Source of the DNA: a phage
Direction: 5' to 3' (one strand)
DNA: 1,041 nt
Sequence record: MT912504.1
A model generated the notes under the pieces. It worked only from the letters and a program-made list of their open reading frames with translations. It had not been told where the DNA came from and did no database searches. The position numbers and the translations under genes were made by a program. This document shows positions 1 through 1,041 of this stretch, piece by piece (the stretch's first letter is position 1; the number at the start of each line of letters is the position of its first letter).

Positions 1-1041
1 ATGGCTAATGTTCCTGGTCAGAAAATTGGTACTGATCAGGGTAAAGGTAAATCTTCTTCTGATGCTCTTGCTCTTTTTCTTAAAGTTTTTGCTGGTGAGG
101 TTCTTACTGCTTTTACTCGTCGTTCTGTTACTGCTGATAAACATATTGTTCGTACTATTCAGAATGGTAAATCTGCTCAGTTTCCTGTTATGGGTCGTAC
201 TTCTGGTGTTTATCTTGCTCCTGGTGAGCGTCTTTCTGATAAACGTAAAGGTATTAAACATACTGAGAAAGTTATTACTATTGATGGTCTTCTTACTGCT
301 GATGTTATGATTTTTGATATTGAGGATGCTATGAATCATTATGATGTTGCTGGTGAGTATTCTAATCAGCTTGGTGAGGCTCTTGCTATTGCTGCTGATG
401 GTGCTGTTCTTGCTGAGATGGCTATTCTTTGCAATCTTCCTGCTGCTTCTAATGAGAATATTGCTGGTCTTGGTACTGCTTCTGTTCTTGAGGTTGGTAA
501 AAAAGCTGATCTTGATACTCCTGCTAAACTTGGTGAGGCTATTATTGGTCAGCTTACTATTGCTCGTGCTAAACTTACTTCTAATTATGTTCCTGCTGGT
601 GATCGTTATTTTTATACTACTCCTGATAATTATTCTGCTATTCTTGCTGCTCTTATGCCTAATGCTGCTAATTATGCTGCTCTTATTGATCCTGAGACTG
701 GTAATATTCGTAATGTTATGGGTTTTGTTGTTGTTGAGGTTCCTCATCTTGTTCAGGGTGGTGCTGGTGAGACTCGTGGTGATGATGGTATTACTATTGC
801 TTCTGGTCAGAAACATGCTTTTCCTGCTACTGCTTCTTCTGATGTTAAAGTTACTATGGATAATGTTGTTGGTCTTTTTTCTCATCGTTCTGCTGTTGGT
901 ACTGTTAAACTTCGTGATCTTGCTCTTGAGCGTGATCGTGATGTTGATGCTCAGGGTGATCTTATTGTTGGTAAATATGCTATGGGTCATGGTGGTCTTC
1001 GTCCTGAGGCTGCTGGTGCTCTTGTTTTTTCTCCTGCTGAG
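1..1041 (+). CDS. 10A: Major capsid protein of a T7-like podovirus (Autographiviridae-type, HK97 fold), homolog of T7 gp10A. Complete or near-complete: ATG at nt 1, open to the last base, stop codon not in window.
   Basis: Frame +1 is open across all 347 codons. Translation begins MANVPGQKIGTDQGKGKSSSDALALFLKVFAGEVLTAF and ends KYAMGHGGLRPEAAGALVFSPAE. By eye it is collinear with T7 gp10A as I recall it (about 345 aa), with many identical blocks along its full length and a C-terminus aligning to T7's ...GHGGLRPEAAGAVVFKVE. The single Cys (TGC, nt 430-432, in the LCN motif) sits at the same place as in T7. Gene symbol follows T7 nomenclature and is a homology call. The identification rests on memory of the T7 sequence, not on a database search. 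The provided ORF track omits this frame, presumably because it has no in-window stop. Confidence 0.9.
   Translation, partial: MANVPGQKIGTDQGKGKSSSDALALFLKVFAGEVLTAFTRRSVTADKHIVRTIQNGKSAQFPVMGRTSGVYLAPGERLSDKRKGIKHTEKVITIDGLLTADVMIFDIEDAMNHYDVAGEYSNQLGEALAIAADGAVLAEMAILCNLPAASNENIAGLGTASVLEVGKKADLDTPAKLGEAIIGQLTIARAKLTSNYVPAGDRYFYTTPDNYSAILAALMPNAANYAALIDPETGNIRNVMGFVVVEVPHLVQGGAGETRGDDGITIASGQKHAFPATASSDVKVTMDNVVGLFSHRSAVGTVKLRDLALERDRDVDAQGDLIVGKYAMGHGGLRPEAAGALVFSPAE

Follow-up and report, generated by a model that had tools for sequence, protein, structure and literature searches.

The stretch of DNA analysed here (1,041 nt, called the window) raises the question of whether it holds a known phage structural gene or an undescribed system. 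A preliminary description, made from the letters alone, had taken its product for a diverged member of the T7-family major capsid proteins and had seen nothing novel in it. We found that the plus strand of the window (1-1041) is occupied by a single frame-1 open reading frame (ORF) of 347 codons without a stop codon. The ORF starts with ATG, its product ends with ...LVFSPAE, and its last codon, Glu347, lies at 1039-1041. In the native gene of Escherichia phage K1F, the Glu347 codon is followed by TAA, which the window lacks. The other frames held only a 100-aa ORF rich in Leu, Val and Phe (+2 frame, 8-310) and, on the minus strand, one of 22 aa. A function for either of them was rejected, as both result from the T-rich, one-codon-per-amino-acid way in which this DNA is written.

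Features of the 1,041-nt window and the evidence for each
Feature	Position	Strand	Evidence
Complete coding sequence of K1F gp10A (major capsid protein, 347 aa), without stop codon and with one codon per amino acid	1..1041	+	Translation, tblastn and direct comparison with AM084414 21131-22174
N-terminal stretch of about 59 residues that precedes the Pfam domain and is conserved in T7 and T3 gp10A	1..177	+	Alignment
Full Pfam Gp10A-like domain, the capsid protein core (residues 60-342; profile positions 1-279 of 279)	178..1026	+	PF21703, 352 bits
Site corresponding to the -1 frameshift heptamer of the native gene (TGTTTTT in the window, GGTTTTC in native K1F)	1023..1029	+	Comparison of the 3' ends of the window and the native gene

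The identity of the protein was revealed by tblastn against 50,697 phage records, of which 1451 had a match. Identity of at least 99% was observed in only four records. They all belonged to Escherichia phage K1F (DQ111067, AM084414 and their RefSeq copies), and the identity in them was 100% over residues 1-347. A direct string comparison gave the same result: all 347 residues were those of the AM084414 CDS at 21131-22174, which is annotated as gp10A, 'putative major capsid protein'. The window encodes K1F gp10A itself and not an unidentified relative of it. K1F is classified in Autographiviridae; Studiervirinae; Kayfunavirus. Protein identities of 95-99% were found in 190 further records, mostly from Kayfunavirus phages of Escherichia, Citrobacter, Salmonella and Hafnia. 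The top matches were thus major capsid proteins of Autographiviridae, which is what the preliminary description had expected of a BLAST search. One record with a 98.6% identical Kayfunavirus capsid gene is labelled 'Enterococcus phage EFA-1', and this host label is odd.

We aligned the protein globally with its two best-known relatives. It was identical to T7 gp10A in 243 of 351 columns (69.2%) and to T3 gp10A in 248 of 351 columns (70.7%), while T7 and T3 gp10A had 276 of 349 columns in common. Identical runs of up to 22, 18, 17 and 16 residues were separated by substituted stretches and by three or four short indels; an example of an identical run is SAILAALMPNAANYAALIDPE. The substituted stretches lay mainly at residues 1-25, about 145-185 and about 255-285. 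The pattern of identical blocks amid substituted stretches had been noticed before, and so had its implication, a T7-like phage that is neither T7 nor T3; both agree with the alignments, and the phage can now be named as K1F. The word 'diverged' is only partly appropriate. It holds relative to T7 and T3 (69-71% identity), but not otherwise, as a database entry has exactly this protein sequence (K1F, 347/347).

Searches of profiles and structures led to the same family. The protein matched Pfam PF21703, 'Gp10A-like major capsid protein', with E = 3.8e-105 (score cutoff, 27 bits) and PHROG 267, 'major head protein', with E = 6.7e-102. A search of the window protein against NCBIfam, a library geared to bacterial and archaeal annotation, returned no family. 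Its best sequence match in PDB was 9vvq (E = 1.1e-216), to which 335 of 346 residues were identical (about 97%; counted by hand from the alignment). PDB 7y23 was matched with E = 3.6e-154, and the T7 gp10A entries (2xvr, 3izg, 3j7v, 3j7w and 3j7x) with E = 1.7e-145 (residues 5-344 of the query against 6-343 of the chain). More distant matches were obtained with capsid proteins of T7-like cyanophages. The N-terminal stretch that precedes the Pfam domain is within the PHROG 267 match (residues 1-346), and the PDB matches begin at residues 1-5. An example of its conservation with T7 and T3 gp10A is DxLALFLKVFxGEVLTAF, and the stretch may represent an N-arm of the HK97 type. A single-sequence AlphaFold2 model of the window protein, built with no alignment, had a mean pLDDT of 29.7 and a pTM of 0.20 and was unusable. 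An HK97 fold of K1F gp10A is probable from its identity to 9vvq_I (about 97%) and to the T7 gp10A structures (about 70%). The sequence matches, which at these E values go far beyond what chance would give, support the assignment of the window protein as a T7-type major capsid protein, and no result spoke against it. The profile and structure searches therefore turned out as the preliminary description had predicted, with a Gp10A-like family, a major head protein and solved capsid structures of T7 and T7-like phages.

The DNA showed quite another picture. All 18 degenerate amino acids are present in the window, and each is written with exactly one codon over the 347 codons (for example, Ala with GCT 48 times, Gly with GGT 36 times, Leu with CTT 30 times and Val with GTT 29 times). 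To our knowledge, no natural gene of 347 codons uses a single codon per amino acid throughout. In the native K1F gene, by comparison, 2-5 different codons occur for most degenerate amino acids. The codon of the window is the commonest phiX174 codon for 18/18 degenerate amino acids, with a tie for Cys, while the most used codons of the native K1F gene coincide with those of the window for only 9/18 (hand tally). The GC content is 39.8% in the window and 52.9% in the native gene. The nucleotide identity between the two is 81.2%, and it is distributed very unevenly: the first two codon positions are 98-99% identical and the third is 46% identical. In a sensitive blastn search of phage records, none exceeded 81.8% nucleotide identity to the window. 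Neither of the two marks of natural DNA, mixed synonymous codons and a nucleotide match to a natural record, was seen in the window.

The use of one codon per amino acid, together with the phiX174 table, implied that the window was written from a protein sequence by reverse translation and that only protein-level evidence from it is meaningful. We therefore estimate, with a probability of about 97%, that the window was derived by computer from the gp10A protein of K1F, by reverse translation into fixed phiX174-top codons. The codon scheme points to mechanical back-translation by means of a phiX174-like table; the same preferences may also occur in other T-rich genomes. Being synthetic, the DNA is in itself uninformative about evolution or regulation. 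Signals at the DNA level, such as codon bias, alternative-frame ORFs, slippery sites, promoters and RNA structure, are either absent from it or artefacts.

The frameshift site of gene 10 is a case in point. GGTTTTC is found at nt 1023 of the K1F gene and at nt 1020 of the T7 gene, in the same phase. A -1 slip at the K1F heptamer leads into a 48-residue extension, QPSGVSTFSQPNVATVAAAPEEETLTPQQKAARTRAANRAAKLAESNN, which is located at about 22153-22320 of the native AM084414 sequence (L001 5023-5190). This extension aligns with the tail of T7 gp10B (local score 103) and shares the motif EETLTPxQxAARTRAAN with it. From these sequences, K1F gp10B is predicted to be a minor capsid protein of 391 aa, produced via a -1 frameshift. 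A gp10B-type extension is annotated in neither of the two K1F records, while the EcoDS1 record has a 'region of similarity to gp10B'. In the window, the gp10B slip site was recoded away and the extension sequence lies beyond the window end. With TGTTTTT in place of the heptamer and no sequence after codon 347, the window has lost the frameshift layer. The -1 frameshift is a feature of the gene's DNA and not a criterion for membership of a protein in gp10A. A study of the T7-like phage phiPsa17 did not detect any frameshifted product (PMC4517105). At 720-726 of the window, the codons for Met-Gly-Phe form a canonical slippery heptamer, G GGT TTT, which is a recoding artefact and biologically meaningless.

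The third codon positions of the window differ from those of native K1F at 54% of codons, and a change of this extent would block homologous recombination and guide matching. It might thus be asked whether the window is a physically synthesised and deliberately recoded K1F gene 10A, with the same protein and function, rather than a pure computational back-translation. Such a gene might serve for trans-complementation, to escape CRISPR counter-selection or wild-type recombination, or for expression in a phiX174-like context. The codon table is phiX174-like, and there is a precedent for engineering of the K1F capsid, namely K1F-GFP with GFP on gp10b (PMC7264188). However, a strict single codon per amino acid is rare in practical codon optimisation, and an engineer working on a T7-like phage in E. 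coli would have no evident reason to choose phiX174 codons. Moreover, the window has no stop codon, ribosome-binding site or cloning flanks, and its DNA is in no deposited phage record. We consider a recoded physical gene to be unlikely. A K1F capsid gene purpose-built in phiX174-preferred codons, for a cross-phage or generative-design experiment, seems somewhat less likely still; even if this were true, the protein would be the known K1F gp10A and nothing would be biologically new. The natural DNA of an undescribed Kayfunavirus with extreme codon bias was also considered. The nearest natural genes have about 82% nucleotide identity to the window, a value that, taken alone, resembles that of a diverged relative. 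But 18/18 degenerate amino acids are single-codon in the window, against the 2-5 codons for most of them in native K1F, and there is no protein substitution relative to K1F in spite of the changes at third positions. Natural divergence does not yield such a pattern. The codon uniformity and the contrast between protein and third positions effectively refute a natural gene, and we give it a negligible chance.

Doubt might also come from database labels, according to which the window would encode the minor capsid protein (gp10B) or a scaffold protein. The label 'minor capsid protein' is attached to PDB 9vvq and to the Salmonella phage PRF-SP, STP-SP and CRW-SP series, which are about 97-98% identical to the window protein, and the copy in Hafnia phage yong1 is labelled 'scaffold protein'. 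The window, however, ends at the gp10A terminus (...LVFSPAE) and has the length of gp10A, whereas the predicted gp10B would continue into the -1-frame tail that is missing here. The real scaffold is encoded by a separate upstream gene, gene 9, and Pfam and PHROG both give the major capsid protein. A gp10B or scaffold product is therefore very improbable, and we read the divergent labels on near-identical records as inconsistent annotation. Near-identical proteins of CY1 and ZH4 bear the label 'capsid and scaffold protein'. With back-translated K1F gp10A as the preferred reading, the only residual uncertainty concerns the origin of the synthetic DNA (computational or a physical construct), not the biology.

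As the window consists of 1041 nt without flanks, the gene neighbourhood was read from the native K1F records. The gp10A gene is situated between gene 9 (scaffold/capsid assembly protein) and gene 11 (tail tubular protein A), and gene 8 (portal, head-tail connector) is upstream of it. This arrangement is the canonical T7 structural module (class III). In the gap between native genes 10 and 11 (L001 5193-5210), we observed a terminator-like hairpin, CCTTCGGGTGCTTGAGGG, followed by a T-run, GTTTTTGCTT. It is placed as T7 Tphi is; the scan gave 1 site against 1.0 expected from shuffles, which is not significant alone.

In K1F, gp10a makes up most of the capsid, and gp10b is a minor component, the one tagged with GFP in K1F-GFP (PMC7264188). 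The preliminary description had mentioned 415 copies of gp10A in T7, and a figure of about 415 is indeed present in the literature (PMC4517105). The T7-like cyanophage P-SCSP1u likewise has 415 copies, arranged in 60 hexons and 11 pentons, with an HK97-like fold (PMC10575957). From its homology with T7 gp10A, K1F gp10A would be expected to serve as a shell subunit with the HK97 fold. Together with the gp9 scaffold, it would assemble into a T=7 procapsid, with the gp8 portal as the starting point around which the shell is built. This procapsid would consist of 60 hexamers and 11 pentamers, or about 415 copies of gp10A, and would expand during DNA packaging. The identity of the sequence, its family, the native neighbourhood and the artificial codons are direct results of this analysis; the fold, the copy number and the pathway of assembly and maturation proposed for K1F are inferred by analogy with T7 and its close relatives.

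The result is mainly negative: the window can be closed as well-characterised K1F gp10A. It is an already known phage structural protein with nothing novel in it, and the exact identity to K1F gp10A bears out the earlier opinion that no undescribed system is present. Two features were absent from that opinion, namely this exact identity and the one-codon-per-amino-acid DNA. There is also a practical lesson. DNA-level features of a back-translated sequence are artefacts and should not be scored.

Compared with known systems, the closest is K1F gp10A itself (CAJ29383.1 in AM084414; AAZ72994.1 in DQ111067), which is the same protein (347/347) with the same start and C-terminus. Only the DNA differs, as the window has neither the TAA nor the GGTTTTC site nor the flanking signals of the K1F gene. 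Other Kayfunavirus capsid proteins, such as those of Citrobacter phage SH3 and Escherichia phages EcoDS1, PH1061 and IMEP24, are 95-99% identical and colinear over the full length. The solved structure 9vvq differs by few substitutions, clustered at about residues 258-282, plus I9V, S19G, V91N and D172N. The gp10A proteins of T7 (NP_041998.1, 345 aa) and T3 (NP_523335.1, 347 aa) share the family PF21703 with the window protein but differ from it by about 30% substitutions and short indels. With HK97 gp5 and the HK97-fold superfamily, the fold and the shell-forming role would be expected to be shared, judging from homology to T7 gp10A and T7-like capsid proteins; HK97 gp5 itself gave no detectable sequence match in the PDB sequence search. 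The native K1F gene occupies the same place as in T7, between genes 9 and 11, although the -1-frame extension is 56 aa in T7 and 48 aa in K1F. The gp10B extension of T3 (NC_003298, L004 about 1420-1692) is unrelated to that of T7 and K1F and contains a Pfam Big_2 Ig-like domain (E = 4.4e-10). The frameshift tails of closely related capsid genes thus carry different modules, of the Big_2 type in T3 and of another type in T7 and K1F.
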